Shown here: in pieces, positions 6,561 to 43,062 of the stretch
Position numbering within the stretch: position 1 is the stretch's first letter
Layout: every line of letters begins with the position of its first letter
Source of the DNA: Mobula hypostoma
Lineage: Eukaryota
DNA length: 64,000 nt
Direction of reading: 5' to 3'
Assembly (NCBI RefSeq): GCF_963921235.1
Contig: NC_086108.1
Span: 22,258,001 to 22,322,000 of the forward strand
Translations under genes and position numbers: made by a program
Notes under the pieces: generated by a model
What the model was told of the DNA's origin: nothing
Seen by the model: the letters and a program-made list of their open reading frames with translations, nothing else
Database searches by the model: none

Positions 6561-6869
6561 TGCTGATTCATTAGATGTTACACTCTGGGAATAGTTTTCC
6601 AACATACAAATACCCCAATTAAACTCTGCAATATGTTTGCATCTATTGTGTAATGTAGACCTTCTGAACACCTTGATACAATAAAATATTTATTAGTGTT
6701 GTTTTTATGTTTGAAATATTTTTGTGCTTGACTATTTAACTTACTGTATATGACAGAACTAGCTCTGTTTTTTTTAGTTTGCAACTTCGCACTACATTTT
6801 GAGTTGTTGCTATTGTGTTAATATTATCCCGGGTACCTGCATATCTTCACAATTTCCATCTTTTTAAAG

Positions 6870-7642
6870 GGAAACAATCCGATTTTGGTTTTGTCTGGAT
6901 AGGAGTCCTCGTGGTGCCTCTTTTCGCCTACTTTCTGATGAATTTTCAAAGCAGTCAGGAACCTGCAGATGATAAACTACTCCACGTGTTCTTGAATAAT
7001 TTTGAGCAAGTTCAGAGGGGTTTTCCTAATCAGGAAGAACAGTTATGGAACAGAAGCAGGATAATGTTGCAGAAACAAGTTATCAAGACCGTGCACTCTG
7101 AACCATCCATCTTAATGTTTGCAGCTGCCTGGGATGCAGAGGAAACCATGCGGTGCCTCACAAGTCGGATAGCTGGAGCTTATGCCTTGTCCTTCAGTTC
7201 CAGGATTCTGGAAATTGATGGAACTGATAAAAAATTTCTAAACAGTGACCAAGCAAAGTTGGATCTTGACAATCAGTTGTCATCGGGCTTCAGAGAAGGC
7301 AGAAAGTCAGCCATTATTCATCATTTCCAGGAGCTCCCGCCTGCTTCTACACTTCTGTTTTACAAGTACTGTGATCATGAAAATGCAGCCTTCAAGGATG
7401 TCTCGTTACTGATCACAGTTTTAGTCGATAAGCCCAGACTAGATCCACACTTGAGCCTTGATGCTCTTCAAGAGACAGTTCATGATTTCCTCATAATGAA
7501 ATTCAACGTCTCGAGTGAAAGTGGACAATACGATGTTCTGGATGTTGACAAGTTCAGTGGGTTGTGGAGTCGTATAGCTCACGCCATTTTGCCTGTTCGG
7601 CCCGAAAGGGAAATTGAAGAAAACGGCTGTAAGCAAGAATAA
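6870..7642 (+). CDS. TOR1AIP1/TOR1AIP2: Terminal coding exon of a torsin-1A-interacting protein (LAP1/LULL1 family): TM helix plus luminal AAA+-like activator domain
   Basis: ORF 6815..7642. Acceptor tccatctttttaaag| at 6869 (phase 1), hydrophobic FGFVWIGVLVVPLFAYFLM, family motifs FYKYCDHENAAFKDV and DKFSGLWSRIAHAILPV (arginine-finger region), C-terminal GC. Which paralog cannot be resolved by eye. Confidence 0.93.
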
Positions 7643-8470: not shown

Positions 8471-10118
8471 GAGACCATAAAAAAAGACGAGCAGTATTAG
8501 GCCAATTTGGCCCATTGAGTCTGCTCTGCCATTCCATCAAGGCTGATTTATTATCCCCTTCAATCCCGTTCTCCTGCCTTCCCCCCCATAACTTTTGACA
8601 CCCATAATAATTAAAAACTTATCAACCTCTGCTTTAAATGTACCCAATGATTTATCCTCCACAGCTGTATTTGGTAATAAATTTCACAGATTCACCATCC
8701 TCTAGCTAAAGAAATTCCTCCTCATCTCTGTTCTAAATAGATGTCATTCTATTCCAAGGCTGTGTCCCATGGTCCTGGACTTCCCCCACTATAGGAAACA
8801 CCCTCTCCACGTCCACTCTATCTGAGTCTTTCAATATTCAATAGGTTTCAATGAGATCCACCCTCTTTCTTCTAAACTCATTTCCAAGATTATTCTGGTG
8901 GACTGTTTCCAATGCCAGCACATCCTTCCACAGATAAGTGGCATAAAGCTACTCACAATACTCCTAGTGTGATCTGACCAATGCCGTAAAGCACCCTTGC
9001 TTTTGTAATCCAATCCCTTCAAAATGAATGCTAACATTGCATTTGCCTTCCTTACCACCAACTCAACATGCAAGTTAACTTTTAGGGAATCCTGCACAAG
9101 GATTCCCAAGTTCTTATGCACCTCTGATTTCTGAATTTTCTTCACGTTTAGAAAATAGTCTACACTTTATTCTTATCACCAAATTGCATGATCATACACT
9201 TCCCTGCACGATATTACATCTGCCATTTCTTTGCCCATTCTCCGAAGCTGTCATTCTGCAGGCTCTCTGCTTCCTTAACACTATCTGCCCCTACAGCTGT
9301 CTTTGCATCATCCACAACTTGGCCACAGAGCCATCAATTCCATCATCCAAATCATTGACAGATAATGTAAATAGAAGCAGTCCCAACACTGAGCCCTGCG
9401 AAATCACTAGTCAACAGCAGCCAACCAAAAAAGCCCCCTTTATTCCTACTTTCTGCCTTCTGCCAGTCAGTCAATCTTCTAACCATGCTAGTATCTTCCT
9501 GTAATACCATGGGTTCTAATTTTGTTAAGCAACCCCATGTGCAGCACTTGTCAAAGGCCTTCCTAAACTCCAAGAGAACAACATTCACTGACTCTCTTTC
9601 GTCTGTTCTAGGTGTTATTTCCTCAAAAAATTCCAACAGATTTGTCAGGTAAGATTTATTCTTAAGGAAACCATGCTGAATTTGGCCTATTTTATCGTGT
9701 GCCTCCAAGTACCTCAAAACTTCATTCTTAATAATGGAATCCAACATCTTCCCACCCACTGAAGTTAGGTTAACTGGCTTATAATTTCCTGCATTTTGCC
9801 TCTTTCTCTTCTTAAAGAGTGGAGTGACAATTGCAATTTTCCAGTCTTTTGGAAAACATTCCAGAATCTATTGATTCTTGAAAGATCACTGCTAATGCCT
9901 TCATAATCTCTTTAGCTACCTCTTTGTAGCCCATCTGGTCCAGGTGACCAATCAACCTTCAAACCTTTCGGTTTCCCAAGCTCCTTCTCCTTCGTAATAG
10001 TGATTACACTCACTTCTGGTATAGAGCTGGTATTTTCCATGGTGAACTTTATCTGCCATTTCTTTGTCCTCTAGTAGCCTGATATCCACTCTTGTCTTCT
10101 TTTTTCTTTGTGTATCTC
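8470..10118 (-). mobile_element. Degraded CR1 LINE ORF2 3' part; resumes at 19980-20075 after the ERV
   Basis: RT remnants (QHGF, LTNLLEFFEE, FRKAFDK); continuation aligns with the uninterrupted CR1 at 21840-21960. Confidence 0.85.
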
Positions 10119-10836: not shown

Positions 10837-13800
10837 GATCAGATGGATATACGGCAGAGCGGTATAAAGAGTTTAGAAGTGAGTTAATTCCTGTTTTACT
10901 CCCCACACTGAACTGGGCTCCAAGAAGGGCGCAAATGCCACCCAGCTGGAAGGAGGCGATAATCTCAGCTATACCGAAAGAAGGCAAGGAGAAAATGGAA
11001 TGTGGGTCATTTAGACCAATATCTGTTCTTAATGTGGATTATAGAATATTTACCTCCATCATGGCCAAACCATTAGAAGAGTTTCTACCTACACTGATAC
11101 ATAATGATCAGACAGGTTTTATACAACAACACCAAACACAAGACAATATACGAAGGACACTTCACATTATCGATCATATAAAACAAATGAAATTGAAGCA
11201 ATAGTGATAAGTGTGGATGCTGAAAAGGCATTTGATTCGGTTAATAGGAATTTTCTTTACAGAGTTTTACATAGATTTGGTCTACATGACACAATTATTA
11301 AAACTATACAGGCACTATATGACAAGCCTACTGCAAGGATTAAAATCGATGGATATTTATCTAATAGTTTTACCCTAGAAAGGGGCATGAGACAGGGTTG
11401 TGCATGGTCACCACTACTCTTCGCATTATATCTGGAACCGTTAGCTCAATACATCAGACAAAACGAAGATATCAGGGGAATTGCTATTAAAGGGTCAGAG
11501 CATAAATTGGCCTGTTACGTGGATGACATTTTGATCTATCTAGGGCAACCAACATACTCTACCTAAGTTGATGCAATCCTTTGAACAATATGGCCAATTA
11601 TCAGGATGCAAGATCAACATAGATAAAACACAACTACTTTAATATAACTAGCCCACCAAGAGAAATTGAAAGTAGATATCATTGGGCATGGCAAACAGAG
11701 TCCGTCAAATATTTGGGCATCATTATGCCAAAAGATTTGGCAAAATTATCAGAATGCAATTTTCAGCCTATATATATACAAAAAAAAGGAAGATATTAAC
11801 AAGGTGGAACCTAATTCCTTTTCTTGGTCTCAGTTCAAGGATTGAATCTATTAAAATGAATATGCTGCCCAGACTACTATATCTCTGTTAGACACTACCA
11901 ATGGAGATCAATTCAATGAATGGAACAAGATGGTATCAAGATATATATGGCAAGGTAAAAGGCCTAGGGTTCGTCTCAAAACTCTGTAGTTAGCCAAGGA
12001 AAGGGGGGGATGGGGCCTACCTTCTCTTAGAGATTATTATTTTGCAGCACAGTTGAGAGCTGTGATATGCTGGTGCAACCCATCATATGATGCTCAATGG
12101 AAAAACATTGAGGAGAGGATACTTTCCATCCCCATACAGGCAATTTTGGCTGATAATAACCTACAAAGTTACATAAATAATATTGACAGCCCGTGGGTGA
12201 AATGGACTCTTAAAACATGGAAACTATTATAAAAGAATATAAACTAGAGAGAGACATTGCAATTCTTAAATGGTGTGCATATGACTCGGATTTTATGCCG
12301 AATAAATTGGATGCTAGATTTAAGGACTGGACAGCTAAAGGAATAACAGTTATTTGCAATATTAGGAAAAGAACACTGTTCAGTTTTGAAATGCTCAAAG
12401 AGAAACACTTATTAGAAAAAGAAGACTTTTACCGGTATTTACAGATGCGACAGTATGTTAATAGGACGGTTAAAAATGTAACCAAGGCAAGTACATGTCT
12501 GATAGAGCTATTTAGAAAAGCATATAATTTAGACAACGGTAGTAGAATAATTTCAAAGATTCAAAGATTCAAAAAACTTTATTGTCATTCTAACCATACA
12601 TCAGCTCTGCAGGGCAGAATGAGACAGCGTTTCTCAGGAGCAGTGCAATCATAACATAACAAAGGCAACACTGAATAATAAACATAACAATAAATAGTAA
12701 AACACAACAGCCACATGTCAGTTAAAATCAAGTTATTAGTGTCCAGTGCAAGTTAAAAGTGTCTAAGCAGAGTCAGGTAGAGCAGCTATTTAGCAGTCTG
12801 ACTGCCTGTGGGAGGAAGCTGTTTAGTAGCCTTGTGGTTTTAGTTTTGATGCTCCTGTAATGTTTGCCTGATGGCAGAAGAACAAACAGTTCATGGAGAG
12901 GGTGTGAGGGGTCTTTAATGATGTACCGTGTCTTCTGGAGGCATCGACTCTGAAAGAGGTCTTGGACAGAAGGTAAGGAGACCCCAGTAAGCTTCTCTGC
13001 TCCCCTAACCACCATCTGCAAGGCTTTTTTGTCGACAGCGCTGCAGCTGGAGTACCAGGTTGTGATGCAAAAGGTCAGCACTCTCTCAACCACGCCTCTG
13101 TAGAATGTAGTTAAGATGTTAGTGGGGAGTGATGCTTGTTTAAGCTTCCTCAGAAAGTGCAATCTCTGCTGGGCCCGTTTCACAATCCCAGTGGTGTTCC
13201 TGGACCAGGTGAGATTATCTGAGATCTGCACTTCAAGGGACTTAATGTTTTCCACTCTCTCCACTGTGGAGCCGCTGATGCTGAGGCGTGTGTGCTCAGG
13301 CTGAGACAGTCTGAAATCGACGATCATCTCCTTGGTTTTGGTGACATTAAGCATCAAGTTGTTATCCCTGCACCAGCTCTCTAGGTGTTTGACCTCCTCC
13401 CTGTACATTGTCTCATCATTTTTGCTGATGAGCCCCACTACTGTGGTATCATCTGCAAATTTAATGATCAGGTTCTCCTTGAATCTGGCTGCACAGTCAT
13501 GTGTTAGCAGTGTAAACAGCAATGGGCTAAGCACACAGCCTTGTGGGGATCCGGTGCTCAGTGTGATGGAGTCAGAGATGTTCTTGCCAACACAGACTGA
13601 CTGTCTGTCAAGAAATCCAGAATCCAGCGACACATGGCAGTGCTAAGGCCAAGCAGCGACAGTTTCTTCACTAGTCTCTGAGGGATGATGGTATTGAACT
13701 CTGAACTGAAATCAATGTACAGGATTCTGGCATAAGTGTCTTTGTTGTTCAAGTGAAAGAGAACTATGTGCAGTGTGGTGGATATTGCGTCCTCCGTAGA

Positions 13801-16517
13801 GCGATTTGGACGATAAGCAAACTGCAGAGGATCCAGTGAGGAGGGGAGGCTGACTGTGATCTGAGGCTCGACAAGCCGTTCAAAACATTTCATCACTATG
13901 GGGGTCAGGGCAACGGGACGGTAATCATTCACAGGCTACAACTGATTTCTTTGCTACAGGGATGATTGTGGAGGTTTTGAAGCATCTGGGGACAATAGCT
14001 TGACTAAGGGAGATGTTGAAAGTGTCTGTCAGGACATTTGCTAATACATCAGCACATTCCTTGAGTACACCTCCAGGGATGTTGTCGGGACTTCCGGCTT
14101 TTCGTGGGTTGACCCTGGCAAGGGTCCTCCGTGTTTGCTCTGGATCAATGATTGGAGCCGGCTGGTCGGATGGTAAAAAGGGACTGGCTCTCCCCCTTGC
14201 TGTAGTGTTTGATGCTTCGAACCGGGCAAAGAAATTATTAAGCCTGTCTGGTAGAGAGGTGTCGCTGTCATCAGTTTTCTGCCTGATCTTGTAGTCCGTT
14301 AGAACTTTAATTCCCTGCCACATCCGTCTGGTGTCACCTGTGTCAAAGTGTCCTTGTATTTTGCCCGCGTAGGCCCTTTTCGCTTTCCTGATCCCTAGTG
14401 AAAGTGCAGACCTGGCTGAGCGAAGCACACTCCTGTCCCCTGATCTGTAGGCTGTGTCACGGGCCTTCAGTAGTGAACGCACCTCTGTTGTCATCCATGG
14501 CTTTTCATAACCACGTGCGGTGAAGGTTTTCATCACAGTGACATCCTCCGTGCATTTGGCTATGTAGCTGATTACTGCCTCCGCATACTGCTCAATGTCT
14601 GTATGGTCGTCATAGGAGGCTGCTATTTTGAATATGTCCCAGTCTGTGTGCAGAAGACAGTCTTGTAGTGCTGAGGCTGCTCCTTTTGGCCAGACCCTTA
14701 TCTCTGTTTTCTCTGCTCTCACACGTTTAAGCTGTGGTTTATATGCTGCTGTTAGCATAACAGATAGGTGGTCAGAGTGGCCGAGATGGGGGCGGGGGGC
14801 TGCTTTGTATGCCTGTGGTGTGTTGGTATAAACCAAGTCCAGCGTGTTGTCTCCCCTGGTTTTGAAATCCACATATTGCAGGAACTTGGGAAACACGGTC
14901 TTTAAGCTGGTGTGGTTAAAGTCCCCAGCAATCACCACAAAGCTGTCAGGATGTGTAGTCAGTAGCTCACTGATGGCTTCATGTAGGCCTCCCAGTGCTT
15001 CGTTAGCATTAGCCTTAGCACTGGCACTGGGAGCTACGTAAACAGCTGCCACAAACATGATGGTGAATTCCCTCAGCAGGTAGAATGGCTGGCATTTCAC
15101 AATGAGAAATTCAGCCAGCGGTGAGCAGTGTTTAGCAGCTACTGTAGCGTTCACACAACAGCCTTTGTTTATATAAATACACAGACCTCCTCCTCGGCTC
15201 TTACCGGAGCTAGCTGCCTCTCTGTCCGCATGAAACGATGTCATTCCCTCTAGCTGTATCGCCGCGTCCAGTAGTTGTCATGGAGCCAGGATTCCATTAA
15301 GACATACACACAGCAGTCTTTAAATTCCTTGCGTGTTTCTCTCAGCAGACGCAGCTCATCCAACTTGTTGTCGATGGAGCGGACATTTGAGAGCAGGAGG
15401 GACAGTACCGCTGGCCTGGTGGGGTTAGCTTTTAGCCGAGCATGGATGCCGGCCCTCTTACCCCTCCTCTGTCTTCTCTCACAGCGCTTTCGCTTCCTCC
15501 TGCCTCGGGAAGCAGCCGGCTTGGTAGCGGGTAGTAGTCCGTAGCAGCGTAAACTGTCCATGTCACACCAGAACTCGTCAGTATTTCCAACATAGTATGC
15601 CCTGATGTTAACGAGCATATTCCGACTGTATGTTATGCGTCCAGGACAAACAGAACAAACACTAGATAGCATGTATAAGGGTTTGTCAAATCTTAAAATA
15701 TATTCGACTTCACACATTGAAACAAGATGGGAGCAGGAAGGAGGGATAATTATATCTGAGGAAGACTGGACAATAATATGGAGGTATCAATGGAAGTGTA
15801 CCAGTTCACAGAAATGGAGCGAGTTCGGGTGGAAAACCTTGATAAAATATTTTTATTACACCCTCCCAGAAATCCGATAGTAACCCCCCTGTTTGCTGGA
15901 GAAATTGTGGAAATCAAAATGCAAACCATTATCATATTTTCTGGGAATGCCCCATTATCAAAGACTACTGGAGTGGGATACATAATGCCCTACAAGACAT
16001 CTTTAAATGTGAAATACCCTTAGAGAGCAAGACCATATATTTTGGGTATATACCTCAAGAATGGTTAAAAAGAGATAAATATTTAATGAATATACTGCTG
16101 GTGGCTGGTAAAAAGGCCCTTACCAGGAAATGGTTATCACAGGAGAGCCCAACTTTAAATGTATGGATGGAAATTACAATGGAGATTTACAAAATGGAGA
16201 AGATAACAGCATTTGTTAATCATGAGTTGGAACAATTTTATTCATACTGGAAAAAATGGTTTAACTACATAACACCTCATAGGCCTGATTTTATTCTCAC
16301 AAGTCAATGAATATGTTGTAAAAAAAAATCACTCCCAACTTTGTACATAGTTTTCTTCTTTCGATTGTTCTTTCTTTCCTCTCCTTTCTATAAGTGTGTA
16401 CCTCAGATAAATATTATGTGGAGATTTGTGACAATATATGTACAGTATCTGAAATACATCTTATGGAAATGTTCGATGATGAAATTCAATTAAAAAAAAT
16501 AAATTACAAAAAAAAAA
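10837..16517 (+). mobile_element. 5'-truncated L1/Tx1-clade LINE (RT plus Cys-rich C-terminus, poly-A tail), split by Rex1
   Basis: PGSDGY, FRPISVLNVD, DAEKAFD, RQGCAWSP, YVDD, CWRNC..HIFWEC; stop 16310; A tail about 16508-16517; frameshifted. Confidence 0.9.
12557..15667 (-). mobile_element. Near full-length Rex1/Babar LINE (APE plus RT, frameshifted)
   Basis: ORFs 13925-15244 (GDFN, LGHSDH), 13558-13932 (NDYRPVALT), 12773-13633 (PQGCVLSP, FADD); (TTCAAAGA)n tail; host L1 reads ..GSRIIS|SMYKGL across it. Confidence 0.92.
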
Positions 16518-20089: not shown

Positions 20090-22960
20090 AAAAGGATTAG
20101 GCCATTTGGCCCATCGAGTCTGCTCTGCCATTCCATCATGGCTAATCCTGGATCCCACTCAACCCCATATACCTGCCATCTCACCATATCCTTTGATGCC
20201 CTGACCGATCAGGAAATGATCAGCTTCCACCTTAAATATGTCCACGGACTTGGCCTCTACTGCAGAGCATTCCACAGATGGTCCGCTCTCTGGCTAAAGA
20301 AGTTCCTCCTTACCTCTGTACTAAAGGGTCACCGCTCAACTTTGAGGCTGTGCCCTCTAGATCTGGATACCCCCACCATAGGAAACATTCTCTCTTCGTC
20401 CTCCCTATCCAGTCCTTTCAACATTCGGTAGGTTTGAATGAGATCCCCGTGCATTCTTCTAAATTCCAGTGAGTACAGACCAAAGCTGTCAAACACTAAC
20501 ACCATAACGCCTTCATTCCCACAATCGTCCTCGTGTACCTCCCCTGACTCTTTCCAATGACAACACATCCCTTCTGATACGGGGCCGAAAACTGTTGATA
20601 ATACTCTTCAGTGCGGTCTGACTAGTGTCTTATAAAGGCTCAGCAATACCTCCCTGATTTTATATTCTATTCCACTGGAAATAAATGCCAACATTACATT
20701 TGCCTTTTTTACCTCAGACTCAACCTGTAAATTAACCTTCTGGGAGTTTTGCACGAGGACTCCTAAGCCCCTCTCCTCCTCTGATGTTTATATCTTTTCT
20801 CCACTTAGATAATAGTCCACACTATTGTTCCTTTTACCAAAATGCATTATCATACATTTCCCAACACTGTATTCCATCTGCCACTTTCTTGCCCATTCTT
20901 CCAATTTGTGTAAGTCCTGTTGCAAATGCACTGCTTCCTCAGCACTACCTACCCCTGCACCTATCTTCCACAAACTTTGCCACAAAGCCATCAATTCCAT
21001 TATCGAAATCATTGACCAACAATGCAAAAAAGCAGAGGTCCCAACTGACTCCTGAGGAACAACACTAGTCACCGGCAGCCAATCAGAAAAGGCCCCCTTT
21101 ATTCCCACATGCTGCCTCCTGCCTGTCAGCCATTCTGCTGTCCATGCCGGTATCTTTCCAGTAATGCCATAGGGTTTGATCTTGTTAAGCAGCCTCATGT
21201 GTGGCACCTTATCAAATGTATTTTGAAAATCCAAGGAAATGACATTCACTGCCTCTCCTTTGTCCACCTTGCTTGTCACTTCCTCGAAGAACTCTAATAG
21301 ATTTGTCAGGTAAGATTTCCCTTTACAGAAACCACACTGACTTTGACTTATTTTATCATTAGACTCCAGGTACCTTGAAACCTCATCCTTAATAGACTCC
21401 AACATTTTCCCAACCACTGAGGTTGGGCTATCTGGCCTATAATTTCTTTTCTTTTGCCTTCCTCCCTTTCTCAAAGAGTGGAGAGACATTTGCAATCTTC
21501 CAGTCCTCCGGGACCATGCCAGCATCAAGTGATTCTTGAAAGATCGTGACTAATGCATCCGTTATCTCTTCTGCAATCTCTCCCAGGACTCTGGGATGTA
21601 ATCCATCTGGCCCAGGTGACTTATCCAGGTCAAGACCTTTCAGTTTGCCTCGCAGTTTTTCCTTTGCAATAGCAATGGCACTCACTCCTGCTCCCTGATG
21701 CTCACAAACCTCTGGCACACTGCTAGTGTTATCCACAGTGAACACTGATACAAAGTACCCATTAAGTTCATCTGCCATTTCTTTGTCCTCCATTACTACC
21801 TCACTAGCATCGTTTTCCAGTGGTCCAATATCAACTATCACCTCCCTTTTACCCTTTATATAACTGAAAAACTTTTGGTATCCTGCTTTTTATAATTGGC
21901 TAGTCTGTTCACATACTTAATCTTTTCCATTCTTATAACTTTTTTAGTTGCCTTTTGTTGGATTTTAAAACCTTCCCAATCATCCAACTTCTCACTCACT
22001 TTTGCTACATTATATGCCCTTTCCAGTCCTTAACTTCCTTTGTCAGCCACGGTTGTCTACCCCTGCCATTTGAGAACAACTATGGGACATATTTATCCTG
22101 CACCTTATGAACTATTCCCAGAAACTTTAGCCATCACTGCTCTGCTGTCATCCCCGCCAGTATCCTCCTCTAATCCACCTGGGCAAACCCCTCTCTTATG
22201 TCTCTGTAATTCCCTTTATTCCATTGTGATACTGACACGTGCTTCCCCCTCTTAAATTACAGCATGAATTCAATCATATCATGATCATTGCCTCCTAAGG
22301 GTTCCTTTACATTAAGTTCCTTAATAAGATCTGGGCTATTACACAACACCCAATCTAAGATAGCCTTTCTCTGAGTAGGCTCAAGCCCAAGCTGCTCTAA
22401 AAAGCCATCTCAGAGGCATTCAACAAATTCCCTCTCTTGTGATCTGACAGCAACCTGATTTTCCCAATCCCCTTGCATATTTAAGTCCCCCGTTACAATT
22501 GTGTCATAACCCTTATTACATGCCTTTTCCAGCTCCCTTTGCAATCTCAACCCCACATCTTGGCTACGATTTGGAGGCCTATATATGATTCCCATGATTT
22601 TTTTTACCCTTGCACTTTCTTAACTCCACCCACAAAAAATTAACATTCTCTGACCTTATACCACCTCTTTCTAAAGGTGTAATTCCACCTCTTACCAGCA
22701 AAGACACACCACTGCCTATGCCTTCTTTCTTTCAACCATGACTCAGTGATGCCCACAATGTCATACCGACCAATCTCTAATTACACCATGAGTTTGTCCA
22801 CCTTATTCTGAATGCTACACACATTTAAATACAGCACTTTCAGTCCTGCATTCTGTGCCTTTTTGAATTTTGTCTCTGTGGTACAATTTAACTCTTTGTT
22901 CTATCTGCATTTGTACCCAATCATTGGCTTGTCCTTCCTTACATTCATGTTACACCAATC
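20090..22960 (-). mobile_element. Degraded CR1 LINE ORF2 (APE plus RT)
   Basis: ORFs 22410-22595 (IYRPPN, GDLN), 21437-21841 (KSPGPDG), 20788-21528. Confidence 0.9.
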
Positions 22961-23921
22961 GTCTACTCGTCCCTTTGGTGGAGAATAGCAGGGTTGCCTA
23001 CGTCTTGAGCAGCAAGAGATGGTGGGATTTTTAATGAATTTTGTTCCTCTGAGTTTACTGTGGAGAATATCATAATTGCTCAAAATGTAATGGATATTCA
23101 CTTTCCAGATTCTGAGAAGCTTATTGCTAAACTCAGCTTTCTCGCACAGCGGTAAGACTTTTCCAAAGGGTCAGATTTCTTTGTTGAACTTTTAACAAAT
23201 ATTCTTTGCTCAGTGTTTTTGTTGTATACAAGAACCAGTCTCCAAATCTTAATGTAAATTGCAAGCAGCAATCGCTTAGAAGTTGGAGACACAGCTTTTC
23301 AAGGTGAAGTGACTTCTCATCTACATTAGCCAATGCAATATGGGTTATATCACTTTGCAGATCAAACATAGTTATAGGTTAGGATGTTTGTGTACTCAGT
23401 AGCGTTAATTATGGATGTTTGGGATCTCTGTCACCAGAAGCTTTTAAGGCCATCCCAGCAAAGGCATATGGAAAACATCACATGCAGATAATGTGATCTA
23501 GTAGAAAACAGAATAAATATCAGAAGCATTGGGTTGTTAGGAATGACAAGGCGAATGACAGAAAGATGGGGTTACAGAAAAGAACTAGAATTCATTCCTC
23601 AACCATTGGTTTCTGTGATGGACGACTGGTTTGTCTGCAACTCATTCGTATATTTTTCTAGTTTGTAAAGATTGTACCTGTGTTGGGAAATACTTTGTAG
23701 TTTGTAAACCTTTAATAAATTTGAAGTCTCCTGTGAGTGTTCAATGTGTGTTAAGAACCATTAAATTTAATTGTGCGTCATTAAAAATAAAATAAACTGT
23801 TTAAACTACTTTGTTAGCTGGATATAGAAACATAGAAACATAGAAAATAGGTGCAGGAGTAGGCCATTCGGCCCTTCGAGCCTGCACCGCCATTTATTAT
23901 GATCATGGCTGATCATCCAAC

Positions 23922-26900
23922 TCAGAACCCCGCCCCAGCCTTCCCTCCATACCCCCTGACCCCTGTAGCCACAAGGGCCATATCTAACTCCCTCTTAAAC
24001 ATAGCCAATGAACTGGCCTCAACAGTTTCCTGTGGCAGAGAATTCCACAGATTCACCACTCTCTGTGTGAAGAAGTTTTTCCTAATCTCGGTCCTAAAAG
24101 GCTTCCCCTCTATCCTCAAACTGTGACCCCTCGTTCTGGACTTCCCCAACATCGGGAACAATCTTCCTGCATCTAGCCTGTCCAATCCCTTTAGGATCTT
24201 ATACGTTTCAATCAGATCCCCCCTCAATCTTCTAAATTCCAACGAGTACAAGCCCAGTTCATCCAGTCTTTCTTCATATGAAAGTCCTGCCATCCCAGGA
24301 ATCAATCTGGTGAACCTTCTTTGTACTCCCTCTATGGCAAAGATGTCTTTCCTCAGATTAGGGAACCAAAACTGCACACAATACTCCAGGTGTGGTCTCA
24401 CCAAGGCCTTGTACAACTGCAGTAGTACCTCCCTGCTCCTGTACTTGAATCCTCTCGCTATAAATGCCAGCATACCATTTGCCTTTTTCACCGCCTGCTG
24501 TACCTGCATGCCCACTTTCAATGACTGGTGTATAATGACACCCAGGTCTCGTTGCACCTCCCCTTTTCCTAATCGGCCACCATTCAGATAATAATCTGTT
24601 TTCCTATTTTTGCCACCAAAGTGGATAACTTCACATTTATCCACATTAAATTGCATCTGCCATGAGTTTGCCCACTCACCCATCCTATCCAAGTCACCCT
24701 GCATCCTCTTAGCATCCTCCTCACTGCTAACACTGCCACCCAGCTTCGTGTCATCCGCAAACTTGGAGATGCTGCATTTAATTCCCTCATCCAAGTCATT
24801 AATATATATTGTAAACAACTGGGGTCCCAACACTGAGCCTTGCGGTACCCCACTAGTCACCGCCTGCCATTCTGAAAAGGTCCCGTTTATTCCCACTCTT
24901 TGCTTCCTGTCTGCTAACCAATTCTCCACCCACACCAATACCTTACCCTCAATACCGTGTGCTTTAAGTTTGCACACTAATCTCCTGTGTGGGACCTTGT
25001 CAACAGCCTTTTGAAAATCCAAATATACCACATCCACTGGTTCTCCCCTATCCACTCTACTAGTTACATCCTCAAAAAATTCTATGAGATTCGTCAGACA
25101 GGATTTTCCTTTCACAAATCCATGCTGACTTTGTCCGATCATTTCACCGCTTTCCAAATGTGCTGTTATCACATCCTTGATAACTGACTCCAGCAGTTTC
25201 CCCACCACCGACGTTAGGCTAACCGGTCTATAATTCCCCGGTTTCTCTCTCCCTCCTTTTTTAAAAAGTGGGGTTACATTAGCCACCCTCCAATCCTCAG
25301 GAACTAGTCCAGAATCTAATGAGTTTTGAAAAATTATCACGAATGCATCCACTATTTCTTGGGCTACTTCCTTAAGCACTCTGGGATGCAGACCATCTGG
25401 CCCTGGGGATTTATCTGCCTTCAATCCCATCAATTTACCCAACACCACTTCCCTACTAACATGTATTTCGCTCAGTTCCTCCATCTCACTGGACCCTCTG
25501 TCCCTTACTATTTCTGGAAGATTATTTATGTCCTCCTTAGTGAAGACAGAACCAAAGTAATTATTCAATTGGTCTGCCATGTCCTTGCTCCCCATAATCA
25601 ATTCACTTGTTTCTGTCTGCAGGGGACCTACATTTGTCTTTACCAGTCTTTTCCTTTTTACATATCTATAAAAGCTTTTACAGTCCGTTTTTATGTTCCC
25701 CGCCAGTTTTCTCTCATAATCTTTTTTCCCCTTCCTAATTAAGCCCTTTGTCCTCCTCTGCTGAACTCTGAATTTCTCCCAGTCCTCAGGTGAGCCACTT
25801 TCTCTGGCTAATTTGTATGCTACTTCTTTGGAATTGATACTATCCCTAATTTCTCTTGTCAGCCACGGGTGCACTACCTTCCTTGATTTATTCTTTTGCC
25901 AAACTGGGATGAACAATTGTTGTAGTTCATCCATGCAACCTTTAAATGCTTGCCATTGCATATCCACCGTCAATCCTTTAAGTGTTATTTGCCAGTCTAT
26001 CTTAGCTAATTCACGTCTCATACCTTCAAAGTTACCCCTCTTTAAGTTCAGAACCTTTGTTTCTGAATTAACTATGTCACTCTCCATATTAATGAAGAAT
26101 TCCACCATATTATGGTCACTCTTACCCAAGGGGCCTCTCACGACAAGATCGTTAATTAACCCTTCCTCATTGCTCAAAACCCAGTCCAGAATAGCCTGCT
26201 CTCTAGTTGGTTCCTCGACATGTTGGTTCAAAAAACCATCCCGCATACATTCCAAGAAATCCTCTTCCTCAGCACCTTTACCAATTTGGTTCACCCAGTC
26301 TACATGTAGATTGAAGTCACCCATTATAACTGCTGTTCCTTTATTGCACACATTTCTAATTTCCTGTTTAATACCATCTCCAACCTCACTACTACTGTTA
26401 GGTGGCCTGTACACAACTCCCACCAGCGTCTTCTGCCCCTTAGTGTTACGCAGCTCTACCCATATCGATGCCACATCTTCCCGGCTTATGTCCTTCCTTT
26501 CTATTGCGTTAATCTCTTCTTTAACCAGCAATGCCACCCCACCTCCCCTTCCTTCATGTCTATCCCTCCTGAATATTGAATATCCCTGAACGTTGAGCTC
26601 CCATCCCTGGTCACCCTGGAGCCATGTCTCTGTGATCCCAACTATATCATAATCATTAATAACAATCTGCACTTTCAATTCATCCACCTTATTATGAATG
26701 CTCCTTGCATTGACACATAAAGCCTTCAGGCGCTCTTTTACAACTCTCTTAGCCCTTATACAATTATGTTGAAAAGTGGCCCTTTTTAATGCTTGCCCTG
26801 GATTTGTCGGCCTGCCACTTTTACTTTTCTCCTTTGTACTTTTTGCTTCTACGCTCACTTTACACCCCTCTGTCTCTCTGCACTGGTTCCCATCCCTCTG

Positions 26901-26954
26901 TTGTGAACTAACCTCCTCACGCCTAGCCTCTTTAATTTGATTCCCACCCCCCAA
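23922..26954 (-). CDS. CR1 ORF2: APE endonuclease plus reverse transcriptase, uninterrupted 1010 codons
   Basis: NARS, ETW, YRPP, GDFN, SDH; PQGSVLGP, FADD; annotated start is TTG, first AUG about codon 211. Confidence 0.93.
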   Translation of the reverse strand: MGGGNQIKEARREEVSSQQRDGNQCRETEGCKVSVEAKSTKEKSKSGRPTNPGQALKRATFQHNCIRAKRVVKERLKALCVNARSIHNKVDELKVQIVINDYDIVGITETWLQGDQGWELNVQGYSIFRRDRHEGRGGGVALLVKEEINAIERKDISREDVASIWVELRNTKGQKTLVGVVYRPPNSSSEVGDGIKQEIRNVCNKGTAVIMGDFNLHVDWVNQIGKGAEEEDFLECMRDGFLNQHVEEPTREQAILDWVLSNEEGLINDLVVRGPLGKSDHNMVEFFINMESDIVNSETKVLNLKRGNFEGMRRELAKIDWQITLKGLTVDMQWQAFKGCMDELQQLFIPVWQKNKSRKVVHPWLTREIRDSINSKEVAYKLARESGSPEDWEKFRVQQRRTKGLIRKGKKDYERKLAGNIKTDCKSFYRYVKRKRLVKTNVGPLQTETSELIMGSKDMADQLNNYFGSVFTKEDINNLPEIVRDRGSSEMEELSEIHVSREVVLGKLMGLKADKSPGPDGLHPRVLKEVAQEIVDAFVIIFQNSLDSGLVPEDWRVANVTPLFKKGGREKPGNYRPVSLTSVVGKLLESVIKDVITAHLESGEMIGQSQHGFVKGKSCLTNLIEFFEDVTSRVDRGEPVDVVYLDFQKAVDKVPHRRLVCKLKAHGIEGKVLVWVENWLADRKQRVGINGTFSEWQAVTSGVPQGSVLGPQLFTIYINDLDEGIKCSISKFADDTKLGGSVSSEEDAKRMQGDLDRMGEWANSWQMQFNVDKCEVIHFGGKNRKTDYYLNGGRLGKGEVQRDLGVIIHQSLKVGMQVQQAVKKANGMLAFIARGFKYRSREVLLQLYKALVRPHLEYCVQFWFPNLRKDIFAIEGVQRRFTRLIPGMAGLSYEERLDELGLYSLEFRRLRGDLIETYKILKGLDRLDAGRLFPMLGKSRTRGHSLRIEGKPFRTEIRKNFFTQRVVNLWNSLPQETVEASSLAMFKRELDMALVATGVRGYGGKAGAGF

Positions 26955-26959
26955 CCATT

Positions 26960-27957
26960 CTAGTTTAAAGTCACCTCAGTAGCCCCCGCTAATCTCCCTG
27001 CCAGGATATTGGTCCCCCTAGGATTCAAGTGTAACCCGTCCTTTTTTTACAGGTCACGCCTGCGCCAAAAGAGGTCCCAATGATCCAAAAACTTGAATCC
27101 CTGCCCCCTGCTCCAATCCCTCAGCCACGCATTTATCCTCCACCTCATCGCATTCCTACTCTCACTGTCGCGTGGCACAGGCAGTAATCCCGAGATTACT
27201 ACCTTTGCGGTCCTTTTTCTCAACTCCCTTCCTAGCTCCCTATATTCTCCTTTCAGGACCTCATCCCTTTTCCTACCTATGTCATTGGTACCTATATGTA
27301 CCACGACCTCTGGCTCCTCACCCTCCCACTTCAGGATATCTTGGACACGATCAGAAATATCCCGGACCCTGGCACCAGGGAGGCAAACTACCATCCGGGT
27401 CTCTGGACTGCGTCCACAGAATTGCCTATCTGACCCCCTTACTATCGAGTCCCCTATCACAACTGCCCTCCTCTTCCTTGCCCTACCCTTCTGAGCTACA
27501 GGGCCAGACTCTGTGCCGGAGGCACGGCCACTGTCGCTTCCCCCGGGTACTCAACAGTACTCCCAACAGTACTCCCAACAGTACTCCCAACAGTACCCCC
27601 AACAGTACTCAAACAGGAGTATCTATTGTTAAGGGGCACAGCCACCGGGGTACTCCCCATCACTTGACTTTTCCCCTTCCCCCTCCTAACCGTGACCCAC
27701 TTGTCTGCCTCCCGTGGCCCCGGCGTGACCACCTGCCTTCCACTCCTCTCTATCACCTCCTCGCTCTCCCTGACCAGACGAAGGTCATCGAGCTGCAGCT
27801 CCAGTTCCGTAACGCGGTCCCTTAGGAGCTGCATCTCGATGCACTTGGCGCAGATGTAGACGTCCGGGAGGCTTGGAGACTCCAGGGCCTCCCACATCCG
27901 ACACCGAGAACAGCAAACTGCCCTCACAGTCATAATGCCCCTCTCCTCAAATAGCAA
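26960..27957 (-). pseudogene. CR1 ORF1: zinc finger, leucine zipper and SGNH/GDSL esterase; disrupted
   Basis: CCSRC..CAKC, LRDRVTELELQLDDL, IGDSIVRG, HIGTND, DGLH; frameshift at the 12-mer repeat and TAA at 27047-27049. Confidence 0.88.
27547..27611. repeat. 12-bp tandem repeat (CCCAACAGTACT), about 5 copies
   Basis: Directly visible. Confidence 0.9.
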
Positions 27958-28559
27958 CAGAAAATGAATGTCAAACCTTCCTCGCCTCGCCCGCTTCCGC
28001 CTAAGCCCGGTGAGCCGAAGCCCTTAAGTCTTCACTCTGCTCCCGGCTCACTCCGCCGCCCGCAAACTACGCTGCCCGCTCTATGAGGCTTTGTTCCTTT
28101 TAAATCTGCCAAGCTGCACTGCCCGACGTCACACGCCTGCGCAGTCCCGCCTCTCAGAAAGCCGTTGGAGGAAAAAAAAAATAACGAAAATTTCAAAAAT
28201 GTCTTTCTCGGCACTCCCACTCAGACGCTCAGACTCCTTCTTCGAATCAAACCCGAAGCAGGATGTCTGCCCTTTGAAATCTGCCGCGCTGCACTGCCCG
28301 ACATCACACGCCTGCTCAGAAATATCTCCTCTTTGGTAGAGAGAGGAACCTACCACTCAAGCAGTGGGCATTGGCAGCTAGACCTTGCCCCAGAGACTAG
28401 ACAGGGTAGTATGTTAGTTCTCAAGAGCAGGTTGATACAGTATAACCTCTCTACAGTAAGGGTATCCATAGATACTGTCTGCATATTGGATAGGGCTTAA
28501 AGTCTTCGTTTAATTTTAGGGCTTTGTGGCAGGGAACCAATACCATCACAATGGGATAA

Positions 28560-29930: not shown

Positions 29931-32115
29931 TTCTAAACCGGAAAAAAGGCCAAATTTGAAGAAATGAGAAAGGATCTAAAAAACATGGATTGGAACAGGT
30001 TGTTCTCTGGTAAGGATGTGATTGGTAAGTGGGAGGCCTTCAAAGGAGAAATTTTGAGAGTGCAGAGTTTGTGTGTTCCTGTCAGGATTAAGGGCAAAGT
30101 GAATAAGAATAAGGAACCTTGGTTCTCAAGGGATATTGGAACTCTGATAAAGAAGAAGAGAGAGATGTATGACATGTATAGGAAACAGGGAGCAAATAAG
30201 GTGCTTGAGGAGTATAAAAAGTGCAAAAAAACTTAAGAAAGAAATCAGGAGGGCTAAAAGAAGACATGAGGTTGCTTTGGCAGTCAAGGTGAAGGATAAT
30301 CCAAAGAGCTTCTACAGGTATATTAAGAGCAAAAGGATAGTAAGGGATAAAATTGGTCCTCTTGAATTTCAGAGTGGTTGGCTATGTATGGAACCAAAAG
30401 AAATGAGGGAGATCTTAAATGGGTTTTTTGCATCTGTATTTACTAAGGAAACTGGCATGGAGTTTATGGAAATAAGGCAAACAAGTAGTGAGGTCATGGA
30501 ACCTATACAGATTGAGGAGGAGGAGGTGCTTGCTATCTTGAGGCAATCAGAGAAGATAAATCCCCAGGACCTGACAGGATATTCCCTCGGACCTTGAAGG
30601 AGATTAGTGTTGAAATTGCAGGGGCCCTGGCAGATATATTTAAAATGCCGATATCTATGGGTGAGGTGCCGGAGGATTGGAGAGTGGCTCATGTTATTCC
30701 GTTATTTAAAAAAGGCTCTAGAAGTAATCCGGGAAATTATAGGCCGGTAAGTTTGACGTCGGTAGTAGGTCAATTATTGGAAGGAGTATGAAGAGATGGG
30801 ATCTACAAGCATTTGGATAGACAGGGACTTATTAGGGAGAGTCAACATGGCTTTGTGTGTGGTATGTCATGTTTAACCAATCTATTAGCGTTTTTCGAGG
30901 AGGTTACCAGGAAAGTGGATGAAGGGAAGGCAGTGGATATTGTCTACATGGACTTCAGTAAGGCTTTTGACAAGGTCCCGCTTGGGAGGTTAGTTAGGAA
31001 GATTCAGTCGCTAGGTATACGTGGAGAGGTAGTAAATTGGATTAGACATTGGCTCAATGGAAGAAGCCAGAGAGTGGTAATGGAGGATTGCTTCTCTGAG
31101 TGGAGACCTGTGACTAGTGGTGTGCCACAGGGATCAGTGCTGGGTCCATTGTTATTTGTCATCTATATTAATGATCTGGATGATAATGTGGTAAATTGGA
31201 TCAGAAAATTTGCTGATCATACAGAGATTGGAGGTGTAGTGGACAGTGAGGAAGGTTTTCAAAGCTTGCAGAGGGATTTGGACCATCTGGAAAAATGGGC
31301 TAAAAAATGGCAGATGGAGTTTAATACAGACAAGTGTGAGGTATTGCACTTTGGAAGGACAAACCAAGGTAGAACATACAAGGTAAATGGTAGGGCACTG
31401 AGGAGTGCAGTGGAACAGAGGGATCTGGGAATACAGATACAAAATTCCCTAAAAGTGGCGTCACAGGTAGATCGGGTCGTAAAGAGAGCTTTTGGTACAT
31501 TGGCCTTTATTAATCAAAGTATTGTGTATAAGAGCTGGAATGTTATGATGAGGTTTTATAAGGCATTGGTGAGGCCGAATCTGGAGTATTGTGTTCAGTT
31601 TTGGTCACCAAATTACAGGAAGGATATAAATAAGGTTGAAAGAGTGCAGAGAAGGTTTACAAGGATGTTGCTGGGACTTGAGAAACTGAGTTACAGAGAA
31701 AGGTTGAATAGGTTAGGACTTTATTCCCTGGAGCGTAGAAGAATGAGGGGACAGTTGAGAGAGGTATATTAAATTATGGTGGGTATAGATAGAGTGAATG
31801 CAAGCAGGCTTTTTCCACTGAGGCTAGGGAAAAAAAAACAGAGAATATGGGTTAAGGGTGCAGGGGGAAAAGTTTAAAGGGAACATTAGTGGGGGCTTCT
31901 TCACACAGAGAGTAGTGGGAGTGTGGAATGAGCTGCCAGACGAGGTGGTAAATGTGGGCTCACTTTTAACATTTAAGAAAAACTTGGACAGGTACATGGA
32001 TGAGAGGTGTATGGAGGGATATGGTCCAGGTGCAGGTCAGTGGAACTAGGCAGAAAAATGGTTCGGCACAGCCAAGAAGGGCCAAAAGGCCTGTTTCTGT
32101 GCTGTAATGTTCTAT
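29930..32115 (+). mobile_element. 5'-truncated CR1 LINE inserted in an older CR1
   Basis: ORFs 29964-31772 with RT motifs; 3' end ctgtgctgtaatgttctatg. Confidence 0.92.
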
Positions 32116-32402: not shown

Positions 32403-34170
32403 AGAATCAGAATCGGGTTTATTATCACTGGCATGTGACATGAAATTTATTAACTTAGCAGCAGCAGTTTAGCATCAATACATAATATAGAAGGAAAAAA
32501 AATAAATAAAATAAAAATAACAATAAATAAGTAAATCAATTACACTATATGTATATTGAATAGATTTAAAACATGCAAAAAACAGAAATAGTGTATATTA
32601 ATAAAAGTGAGGTAGTGTCCAAGGATTCAATGTCCATTTAGGATTCGGATGGTAGAAGGGAAGAAACTTCCTGAATCGCTGAGTGTGTGCCTTCAGGCTT
32701 CTGTACCTCCTACCTGTTGGTAACAGTGACAAAAGGGCATGGCCTGGGTGCTGGATGTCCTTAATAACAGATGCTGCCTTTCTGAGACACCACTCCCTGA
32801 AGATATCCTTGGTACTTTGTAGGCTAGTACCCAAGATGGAGCTGACTAAATTTACAACCCTCTGCAGTAGCACCCCCGCCCCCCCCCCCCCACCAACCAT
32901 ACCAGACAGTGATGCAGCCTGTCAGAATGCTCTCCACGGTACATCTATAGAAGTTTTTGAGTGTACTTGTTGACAGGCCAAATCTCTTCAAACTCTAAAT
33001 GAAGTATAGTGGCTGTCTTGCCTTCCTTATAACTGCATCGATATGTTGGGACCAGGTTAGATCCTCAGAGATTTTGACACCCAGGAACTTGAAACTGCTC
33101 ACTCTCTCCACTTCTGATCCCTCTATGAGGATTGGTATATGTTCCTGTGACTTGCCCTTCCTGAAGTCCACAATCAGCTCTTTCGTCTAACTGACGTTGA
33201 GTGCCAGGTTGTTGCTGTGGCACCACTCCACTGGTTGGCATATCTCACTCCTGTACATCCTCTTGTCACTACCTGAGATTCTACCAACAATGGTTGTATC
33301 GTCCACAGATTTATAGATGGTGTTTGAGCTATGCCTAGCCACACAGTCATGTGTATATAGAGAGTAGAGCAGTGGGCTAAGCACACAGCCCTGGGATGTG
33401 CCAGTGTTGATCGTCAGTGAGGAGGCTACGTTATCACCAATCCTCACAGATCGTGGTCTTCCGGTTAGGAAGTCGAAGATCCATTTGCTGAGGGAGGTAC
33501 AGAGGCCCAGGTTCTGCAACTTCTCAATCAGGATTGTGGGAATGATAATATTAAATGCTGAGCTATAGTTGATGAACAGCATCCTGATGTAGGTGTTTGT
33601 GTTGTCCAGGTGGTCTAAAACCATGTAGAGAGCCATTGAGGTTGCTTCTGCCGTTGACCTATTGTGGCGATAGGCAATTTGCAATGGGTCCAGGCCCTTG
33701 CTGAGGCAGGAATTCAGTCTACTCATAACCAACCTCTCAAAGCATTTCATTACTGTAGATGTGAATGCTACTGGGCGATAGTCATTAAAGCAGCTCTTAG
33801 GCACTGAAGAAGAATTATTCTTCTTAGGCCCTGGTATAATTGTTACCTTTTGAAGCAAGTGGGAACTTCTGCCCGTAGCAGTGAGAGGTTGAAAATGTTG
33901 TTGAATACTCCATCTAGTTGTCGCACAGGTTTTCAGAGCCTTACCAGGTACTCCATCTGGACCTTCTGCCTTGCGAGGGTTCACTCTCTTTAAATACAAC
34001 CGAACATTGACCTCTGAGACGGAGATCACAGGGTCATCAGGAGCAGCAGGGATCTTCACAGCTGTAGTTGTGTTCTCCCTTTCAAAGTGGGCATAGAAGG
34101 CATTGAGTTCATCTGGTTGTGAAGTATCGCTGCCATTCATACTATTGGGTTTTGCTTTGTAGGAAGTGCA
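32403..34170 (-). mobile_element. Rex1/Babar LINE 3' half
   Basis: ORF 33187-34140 (NDYRPVAF, SQGCVLSP, VDD); (AGAATC)n tail. Confidence 0.88.
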
Positions 34171-34329
34171 TTGCTCTATGACTCAAGAGGACTTGAGTTA
34201 TAAGGAGAAACTCAATAAAGTGGGAGTCTTTTCCTTACTGTGTAGGAGGTATAGATATTTAAAATTCTTATAAACTGTTATATTTTTCCAAAAAACCTTA
34301 TAGAGTTTTATAAAATTGTTAGGTATGTC

Positions 34330-41515: not shown

Positions 41516-42752
41516 TAAATAAATTACAATACCCATATATTGAATAGATTAAAAATTGTGGAAAAACAGAAATATATATTTAAAAAGTGAGGTAGTGTTC
41601 ATGTGAGGTAGTATCCATTTAGGAATCAGATGGCAGAGGGGAAAAATCTGGTCCTTAATCACTGAGTGTGTGTCTTCAGGCTTCTGTACCACCTAACTGA
41701 TGGTAACAGTGAGAATAGGGCATGCCCTGGGTGCTGGTAGTCCCTAATAATGGATGCTGCCTTTCTGAGACACCGCTCCCTGAAGATCGAGTCATAGTCA
41801 GAGTAATACAACACAGAAACAGGCCATTCACCCCAACCCGTCCATGCCAACCCAGGTGCCCACCTAAGCTAATCCTACTTGCCCATATCCCTCTATCCAT
41901 ACACTTACCTTTCCTATCCATACACTATCAAAATGTTCAAAGTTCAAAGTAAATTTATTATGAAAGATTCAAGATTTAAAGCACATATATTATCAAAAAT
42001 TTATAAATCATACACTGTGAGATTTGTCTGCTTACAGGCAGCCAGAAAGCAAGAAACCCGAACAATCCAATTTAAAAAAAAGACCAAACACCACTGCACA
42101 GAGAAAGAGGGGAAAGAAAAACACGAATCACACAAACAATAGAAGCAAGCCAACAGCATTCTGAACCAGACTGAGCCCCCAGATCTGCTCCCGGGGTAGC
42201 CAGAGTAGGCCCAAGCCTCGGTCCCAGTTCATCACAGTACTTTGTAGGCTAGTACCCAAGATGGAGCTGACTAGATTTACGACCCTCTGCAGCTTCTTTC
42301 AGTCCTGTGCAGTAGCCTCACCCCGCCCCACCCCTGCCATACCAGCATACCAGACAGTGATGCAGCCTGTCAGAATGCTCTCCACGGTACATCTATAGAA
42401 GTTTTTGAGTGTATTTGTTGACATGCCAAATCTCTTCAAACTCCATTGAAGAATATATTCAAAGTACAGCCGCTGTCTTGCCTTCTTTATAACAATGTGT
42501 TGGGACCAGGTTAGATCCTCACAGATCTTGACACCCAGGAACTTGAAACTGCTCACTCTCTCCACTTCTGATCCCTCTATATGTTCCTTCATTTTACCTT
42601 TTCTGAAGCCCACCATCAGCTCTTCTGTCTTACTGACGCTGAGTTCAAGGTTGTTGCTGTGACACCACTCCACTAGTTGGTATATCTCGCTTCTATACGC
42701 CCTCTCATCTCCATCAGAGATTCTACTAACAACGTCTGTACCATCAGCAAAT
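41515..42752 (-). mobile_element. Rex1 LINE 3' fragment, interrupted (about 41790-42235) by CR1-end and other LINE-tail fragments
   Basis: Homologous to 32530-33310; FADGT, CTVESILTGCITVWY. Confidence 0.75.
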
Positions 42753-42753
42753 T

Positions 42754-43062
42754 GGGCAAGAGGTAATGTGCACCTGCTTAGCCCCCCATCGCCCCCATTA
42801 GCTTCACGGGAATCCATGGGAGCAGGTAGGGGATGGTCGTGTGAGCAGCTGGTGCATATCACAAGTCCTGGTTATTCAACCACTGGCGCCAGGCAGACAA
42901 TCTCTGAAGAGTATTGATAATGGCTGGGGTCACCCGTCTTGTAACAACACTGCCCAGCTGAAGAGAATGGCAAACCACTTCTGTAGAAAAATTTGCCAAA
43001 AGACAATCTTTATCATTGCAAGACCATGATCGCCCACGTCATATGCCATGCACATAATGAAT
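42754..43062 (+). mobile_element. RTE-related SINE-like element
   Basis: gaagagaatggcaaaccacttc resembles the Bov-A/RTE 5' motif (recalled, not searched). Confidence 0.5.

Follow-up and report, generated by a model that had tools for sequence, protein, structure and literature searches.

A conserved slippery heptamer and G-rich motif at the ORF1/ORF2 junction of CR1 retrotransposons from rays and bird-type relatives: a predicted −1 frameshift signal

The CR1 element of the window and its junction

The stretch of DNA analysed here (the window, 64 kb from the ray Mobula hypostoma) carries on its minus strand a full-length CR1-type LINE that runs from about 28310 to 23823 (Table 1). By Pfam (PF03372, PF14529 and PF00078), its ORF2 encodes an APE endonuclease and a reverse transcriptase, and its 3′ end consists of three TTTCTATR units (23846-23823) without poly(A); a 3′ end made of short tandem repeats, with no poly(A), is a hallmark of CR1 elements. 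ORF1 is intact in a sister copy, L043, where it encodes 311 residues with a PF13472 domain (E 8e-16) and matches a relative among the SGNH esterases, PDB 4C1B, at E 1e-26 (1.3e-26). The nearest named homologues of this protein are ray proteins (94% to a Mobula protein), and a 79-residue piece of ORF1 drew 73,770 first-look candidates from the ray genome. Two ORFs, an SGNH esterase in ORF1, an APE-RT ORF2 and a tandem-repeat tail are features shared with vertebrate CR1 (chicken CR1 and, for the esterase, ZfL2-1, PDB 4C1B); turtle PsCR1 is likewise a CR1 LINE with an esterase ORF1. By its sequence, the element is an ordinary vertebrate CR1 LINE. The clade name is assigned provisionally, from the domain layout and general features of CR1 elements, and the tree built here is an APE tree of the loci gathered in this analysis.

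In the 5′ UTR, a motif of about 27 nt is present twice (28311-28285 and 28140-28110, minus strand), and the GTGACGT core of one copy resembles a CRE/E-box site. Elsewhere in the window lie many other LINE fragments in a decayed state, which their translations divide into at least three kinds, at 9352-9867, 20788-21889, 30792-31772 and 62860-63564, at 12773-15786, 33187-34182, 42299-42871 and 50836-51453, and at 11108-11566 and 15846-16310; we provisionally label them CR1-like, Rex/L2-like and L1/Tx1-like. An open frame of 279 codons at 6803-7642 on the plus strand looks like a host exon, presumably akin to the luminal domain of torsin-interacting proteins.

Table 1. Parts of the CR1 element and of its ORF1/ORF2 junction in the window
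Feature	Position	Strand	Basis or remark
5′ UTR of CR1	27934..28311	−	from sequence; 5′ end approximate; L043 alignment extends to 28247
ORF1: Cys-X2-Cys zinc-finger-like N-terminus and SGNH/GDSL esterase, C-terminus ...EVTLN*; broken in this copy	26960..27933	−	
Net 38-nt tandem insertion, shifting the ORF1 frame	27550..27595	−	pairwise alignment with L043
Premature TAA in ORF1, 28 codons upstream of the normal stop	27047..27049	−	
TGA closing the ORF2 frame upstream, by which the overlap is 16 nt	26976..26978	−	
Slippery heptamer U_UUA_AAC, predicted −1 shift site	26963..26969	−	
ORF1 stop TAG, adjoining the heptamer; TAA or TGA in other lineages	26960..26962	−	
G6-T-G3 motif, starting 11 nt past the heptamer (10-nt spacer), candidate stimulator	26943..26952	−	
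AUG-less linker from heptamer to endonuclease, open in the −1 frame, 80 codons from the heptamer	26730..26959	−	
ORF2 frame, 1015 codons counted from the heptamer	23922..26969	−	
APE endonuclease within ORF2	from 26729	−	
First ATG within ORF2	26324	−	
Reverse transcriptase within ORF2	about 25253-24600	−	
3′ UTR with terminal tandem repeats of the TTTCTATG type	23823..23921	−	sequence and tail motifs

The sequence-only reading of this DNA had pointed to a UUUAAAC slippery site linking ORF1 to an AUG-less ORF2, and its description of the junction is borne out. On the minus strand ORF1 ends in GAG GTG ACT TTA AAC TAG, with T TTA AAC in the X_XXY_YYZ register immediately before the stop. The −1 frame at the heptamer is the ORF2 frame, which is closed upstream by TGA, as a result of which the two ORFs overlap by 16 nt, and is then open for 1017 codons to 23925; a G-rich tract (GGTTGGGGGGTGGG) begins 6 nt after the heptamer, as had been read from the sequence. 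The first AUG of the ORF2 frame does fall inside the endonuclease domain (Pfam 100-286), at codon 216 from TTT rather than about 211 (26324-26322; codon 218 from the TGA). The transframe peptide would not start with F but would read ...EVTLN-LEWLGGG (or ...TL-KLEW).

ORF1 of the window copy is broken upstream of the heptamer by the premature TAA and by the 38-nt insertion. At the position of the TAA a sense codon is found in all 30 family loci, Tyr in 29 of them, and contigs from four public runs show another letter at 27047 in more than 98% of the depth. With both lesions, ribosomes that initiate at this copy's ORF1 AUG would not arrive at the heptamer in the ORF1 frame, and the frameshift claim therefore concerns the family and not the window copy. 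To judge by these lesions, the window copy is a relic that is unable to make the fusion, since its broken ORF1 does not run into the site in frame. The occurrence of one heptamer with its stop is within chance: TTTAAACTAR is found once in the window against 0.44 expected, a count reached in 30 of 100 shuffles, and TTTAAAC occurs seven times. The significance of the site lies in the conservation of its position across lineages.

Conservation of the heptamer, the −1 frame and the G-rich motif

Conservation was followed first within the family of the window copy, where TTTAAAC stands in register in 27 of 30 loci chosen for protein identity upstream of the junction. A wider set of DNA loci came from three divergent queries against the ray genome and from a broad alignment against metagenomes; 28 of the 174 loci, being cut or without an anchor, were left out, and 146 were counted. 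The junction position was predicted from ORF1 residues −60 to −9, an anchor that leaves out the heptamer site itself. Exact TTTAAAC is present in the predicted register in 112 of these 146 ray and bird-type loci and within 20 nt of it in 120. The initial DNA search returned an excess of copies with breaks at the LYKK codons, probably owing to skipped common words, and the less biased copy set was taken instead from the search with the 79-residue ORF1 piece. A fish-type esterase query (distant, not ending in LN), meant as an L2-type control, drew nothing but CR1-type loci from the ray genome: 12 of its 15 loci have exact TTTAAAC, one has TTTAAAG and two stop short of the junction. In 14 of these 15 the −1 frame is shorter than 75 codons, which suggests decay. 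A GTDB scan gave one locus and a viral scan two, none of which extends to the junction.

Several other sequences were met on the way. Two loci, L067 and L132, carry G_TTA_AAC, presumably the arterivirus heptamer, in place of TTTAAAC. The first of them (L067:1-3650) is a divergent metagenome CR1 with an intact ORF2 of 973 codons and a G-run one codon closer to the heptamer, and in the APE tree it forms a long branch outside the ray and bird-type groups. CR1 ORF1 also turned up in a Providencia assembly, on a contig of 506 bases (L097), and in a protein labelled Pseudomonas aeruginosa (P0021), both of which are probably animal DNA contamination. Seven host-named gene models (P0026, P0056, P0057, P0082, P0083, P0110 and P0111) contain pieces of CR1 ORF1 (and APE), and are either exonised copies or annotation errors.

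At the protein level, 52 of 108 ORF1 homologues end in LN, named shark, ray and frog proteins among them (the frog support consisting of protein sequences), and the spacing between the esterase His motif and the Leu-Asn end hardly varies; the unnamed LN-ending proteins were assigned to the bird type on the assumption that their CR1 features place them there. Unlike ray CR1, fish-type esterase homologues of the ZfL2/L2 kind show no LN ending among the 108. The residue before LN can be encoded by a codon ending in T in 51 of the 52 LN-ending proteins. The corresponding control, that is, the number of residues unable to end in T (n=52), is 28 at −4, 14 at −5, 3 at −6 and 1 at −7, and is uneven.

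A further comparison is offered by the DNA of 17 lineage representatives, grouped by hand. Positions 2-8 (TTAAACT) are invariant in them, and 16 of the 17 have T at position 1, the exception being G_TTA_AAC; the flanks are far less alike, with a mean identity of 44% in the 45 nt upstream and of 37% from +23 to +45. Eleven representatives have an open ORF1, and their ORF1 proteins are 18-78% identical (mean 38%); among these the terminal Leu is TTA in 11/11 and the terminal Asn is AAC in 11/11. The other 11 conserved ORF1 columns each use two to four codons; TTA is used at other conserved Leu positions in 4/42 cases and AAC at another conserved Asn in 4/11. The residue before the terminal Leu varies (T, A, G, S, C or D) and its third base remains T, against a background of 79/330 T at four-fold sites. 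Multi-copy representatives were chosen for the commonest junction of their lineage, so that the codon-usage and wobble-T counts are inflated; the raw count of 112/146 is free of this bias, and the lineages are related by descent, so that none of these counts is independent. A variable residue with a fixed wobble T, followed by fixed TTA and AAC, is not explained by protein constraint. Judged from these alignments, the heptamer is conserved beyond amino-acid need, and the check proposed in the sequence-only reading, conservation of heptamer and register, came out in its favour across ray lineages and bird-type CR1s.

The linkers that join the heptamer to the endonuclease are 33-89 codons long and mostly have little sequence in common. 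In 18 of 19 lineages the modal linker length is divisible by 3, and the one that departs from this is an old, decayed family. Over about 929 codons the linkers share a single stop in the −1 frame, as against 65 and 95 in the two remaining frames. Together, these lengths and the near-absence of −1 stops imply that ribosomes read the linkers in this frame from the heptamer onwards. On the upstream side, most representatives close the −1 frame within 1-5 codons. Of 139 single copies, 104 have the endonuclease in the −1 frame and 35 have it in another frame, the latter suggesting decay of dead copies. No Met precedes the endonuclease in 7 of 17 representatives (one of the seven is open for only 31 codons), nor in typical copies of the window family, where an in-frame AUG ahead of the APE domain had been named as the adverse outcome and the first Met is codon 216. 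None of the seven ray representatives has an in-frame AUG within the first 15 codons.

Subfamilies R1 (L001) and R1b (L018-L029) are almost base-identical at the ORF1 end and the junction but part from each other after about 25 codons of linker, and the endonucleases of the two stand on different branches. These sequences suggest that recombination within the linker may exchange ORF1-plus-junction modules among ORF2s. A scan for naturally fused lineages gave two matches in 811 longer-protein candidates, both host gene models. The stingray proteins P0110 and P0038 read esterase, FKL and APE in succession; each is probably a lone copy, mutated or corrected by the gene model, and neither was counted.

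Downstream of the heptamer, 98 of 145 loci have a G-run of at least four that begins at +11; in another 12 it begins at +10, and 15 lack it. In the L067 lineage it starts at +8. The lineage-weighted frequency of G is 0.93-0.99 at +11 to +15, and what is conserved is a linear motif, G5-N1-3-G3, behind a 10-nt spacer. The codons across the G-run encode several amino acids, which indicates a constraint on nucleotides. No shared fold was found in the next 60 nt of the 17 representatives (z −2.0 to +1.6, by a program blind to pseudoknots) or in the next 100 nt (z −3.0 to +1.4), where three fall below −2.4 with differing folds. A local hairpin or pseudoknot 5-9 nt downstream was accordingly rejected as a common structure among the 17, within what this program can see. 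A duplex scan of 19 elements, several of them decayed or truncated, found no constant site for a long-range partner of the G-run, the 3′ UTR included.

The stop codon and a G-quadruplex had been proposed as possible stimulators. It can be seen that the stop does adjoin the heptamer. A two-tier quadruplex is predicted on the G-motif in 4 of 17 representatives, and a conserved four-tract quadruplex found no support, the conserved tracts being G5 and G3 only. Because two G-tracts alone are conserved, a quadruplex stimulator is doubtful and weakly supported by these predictions. As a separate observation, the CCLPGARV codons of ORF1 (window about 27390-27365, minus strand, and homologous sites some 413-416 nt upstream of the heptamer) look conserved at the DNA level between ray and bird-type elements; TGC CTC CC is present there in 10 of the 15 representatives in which the motif was found, and it recurred as a G-run partner in the duplex scan. 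Its sequence makes it a possible RNA element.

Routes to the translation of ORF2

Taken together, the junction consists of a heptamer in register, an adjacent stop, an open −1 linker, no AUG in most ray lineages and a G-motif. We consider it probable, at roughly 80%, that the CR1s of rays and their bird-type relatives make a Gag-Pol-like ORF1-ORF2 fusion by programmed −1 frameshifting on U_UUA_AAC. It is from the conserved sequence that we infer the slippage, its efficiency and the action of a stimulator, and the fusion proposed in the sequence-only reading is upheld on this ground for the family, the window copy excepted. Most ribosomes would terminate at the stop and release ORF1p. A minority would slip, with tRNA-Leu re-pairing on UUU and tRNA-Asn on AAA, and would continue as ...TLN-LEWLGGG... 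through the variable linker into the endonuclease and the reverse transcriptase, to yield a predicted fusion of about 1,324 residues (311 + 1,013). Slippage of a minority would also set a high ORF1p:ORF2p ratio. The weakest step is the pause, which would combine slow termination at the stop beside the heptamer with the effect of G5-N1-3-G3, the latter probably bound by a protein and not folded into a pseudoknot. On mammalian ribosomes, U_UUA_AAC is one of the heptamers most prone to shifting (PMC5009743).

The strongest competitor, which we regard as unlikely, is termination followed by reinitiation of the L1/SART1 type at an AUG or a non-AUG codon, releasing free ORF2p, with the conserved bases acting as the reinitiation signal. 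Mammalian L1 and silkworm SART1 resemble CR1 in having a bicistronic LINE RNA, their ORF2 depends on ORF1 translation, and ORF1-dependent unconventional initiation is the route described for both (PMC2881922); reinitiation in mammalian LINEs is AUG-independent (PMC5009743). An open linker would also fit a restart beside the stop, and an in-frame AUG at codon 4-5, once as TAATG, is present in 5 of 9 bird-type loci. However, no common start is apparent, codon 5 of the −1 frame being TGG, AGT/AGC, TTG, ACA or TGC in ray lineages, and in the window family the sole AUG beside the stop is out of frame and opens eight codons only. Restart in L1 and SART1 gives a separate ORF2p, whereas the two ORFs of CR1 overlap in the −1 register at a slippery heptamer, and ORF2 often lacks an AUG. 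Reinitiation predicts neither X_XXY_YYZ in exact register, nor a constant −1 overlap, nor retention of the heptamer where an AUG exists.

The same bird-type loci raise a mixed case, in which frameshifting would be ancestral and some bird-type lineages would have added reinitiation or switched to it. The AUG at codon 4-5 of B063, B064, B065, B068 and B086 would fit this, but B062, B070, B075 and B078 have GTG, TCG, TGG or GAA in its place, and all retain the heptamer. That reinitiation dominates in such lineages appears to us a slender prospect. Least probable of all, and very unlikely, is a motif that is not translational (a Leu-Asn protein constraint, or a signal in RNA or DNA, for instance a splice acceptor or a site of transcriptional slippage, with ORF2 made from processed RNA): LN is invariant in the protein, CTAG resembles a 3′ splice site and many copies are decayed, but a constraint on the protein can account neither for fixed TTA and AAC nor for the constant wobble T of a residue that varies, the AG of an acceptor is not retained (several lineages have TAA), and TTT and AAA are short tracts for slippage by a polymerase. 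Splicing at the junction was likewise rejected, no canonical ends being present among the 15 joints shown of 55 (contigs from four runs not recorded as RNA); one such contig skips 248 nt with AT..TT ends. A look for expression listed no run recorded as RNA, which speaks neither for nor against transcription of the element.

Relation to known systems and significance

Programmed −1 frameshifting is not new to non-LTR elements. The Dictyostelium APE-type LINEs TRE5-A and TRE3-A require a −1 frameshift for ORF2, according to a figure legend in a review (PMC5911963). These are amoeba elements whose ORF1 is unrelated to that of CR1 (PMC5006619), and they are compared here by description only. No description of CR1 frameshifting was found in the literature covered, outside which lie the founding 1997 chicken and turtle CR1 papers, Repbase-type notes and supplements; a term search met no mention of a slippery site or of programmed frameshifting in the portions of three CR1 papers that it covered (PMC2734521, PMC3905857 and PMC11835228), and the term 'CR1' is absent from the portions covered of a frameshifting review (PMC5009743).

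The heptamer and register are identical to those of IBV and other coronaviruses (PMC5009743). As in viral frameshifting, retroviral gag-pol included, a structural protein is encoded first and the polymerase follows it in the −1 frame (PMC5009743). Viral sites usually have an RNA structure 5-9 nt downstream (PMC7618472), whereas none was found in CR1, and in CR1, unlike the viral sites, the stop adjoins the heptamer. The closest parallel for the G-motif is the nsp2 site of PRRSV (nsp1beta + PCBP), at which a structure-free motif behind a 10-nt spacer, efficient at 9-11 nt, stimulates frameshifting through a bound protein (PMC4937337). Both motifs are short, linear and two-patched at a 10-nt spacer with no obvious structure (PMC4937337), and in CR1 too the G-run of most loci keeps to this range of spacing and no RNA structure was found. 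The PRRSV motif is C-rich, goes with another heptamer and is viral, whereas that of CR1 is G-rich and belongs to a non-viral element. By analogy with this spacing, the CR1 G-motif is a candidate stimulator, probably bound by a protein. No natural case of frameshifting driven by a G-quadruplex is given in the 2016 review, in the parts covered (PMC5009743).

More tentatively, and at rather less than even odds, the findings may amount to a major vertebrate LINE clade with a Gag-Pol-like RT fusion that predates the shark/tetrapod split, together with a new, structure-free −1 signal, either protein-bound or a G-quadruplex. Such a signal would combine the heptamer, an immediate stop and a G-rich motif at a 10-nt spacer, and the binder of the motif would be a host G-run binder or ORF1p itself, the latter as feedback on the dose of ORF2.

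How ORF2 of LINEs is translated is a standing question, for which the described answer in L1 and SART1 is reinitiation. CR1 is reported to be the most abundant interspersed repeat in the chicken genome (PMC11835228), and the ray genome holds tens of thousands of candidate copies. If the frameshift reading is true, the active CR1 enzyme would be an esterase-endonuclease-RT fusion, ORF2 annotations that begin at an internal AUG would be wrong, and retrotransposition assays of CR1 would need the native junction. Host factors that act against frameshifting, for example Shiftless, could then conceivably restrict CR1. The whole signal spans 30 nt, and its G-rich motif may represent a new type of stimulator.
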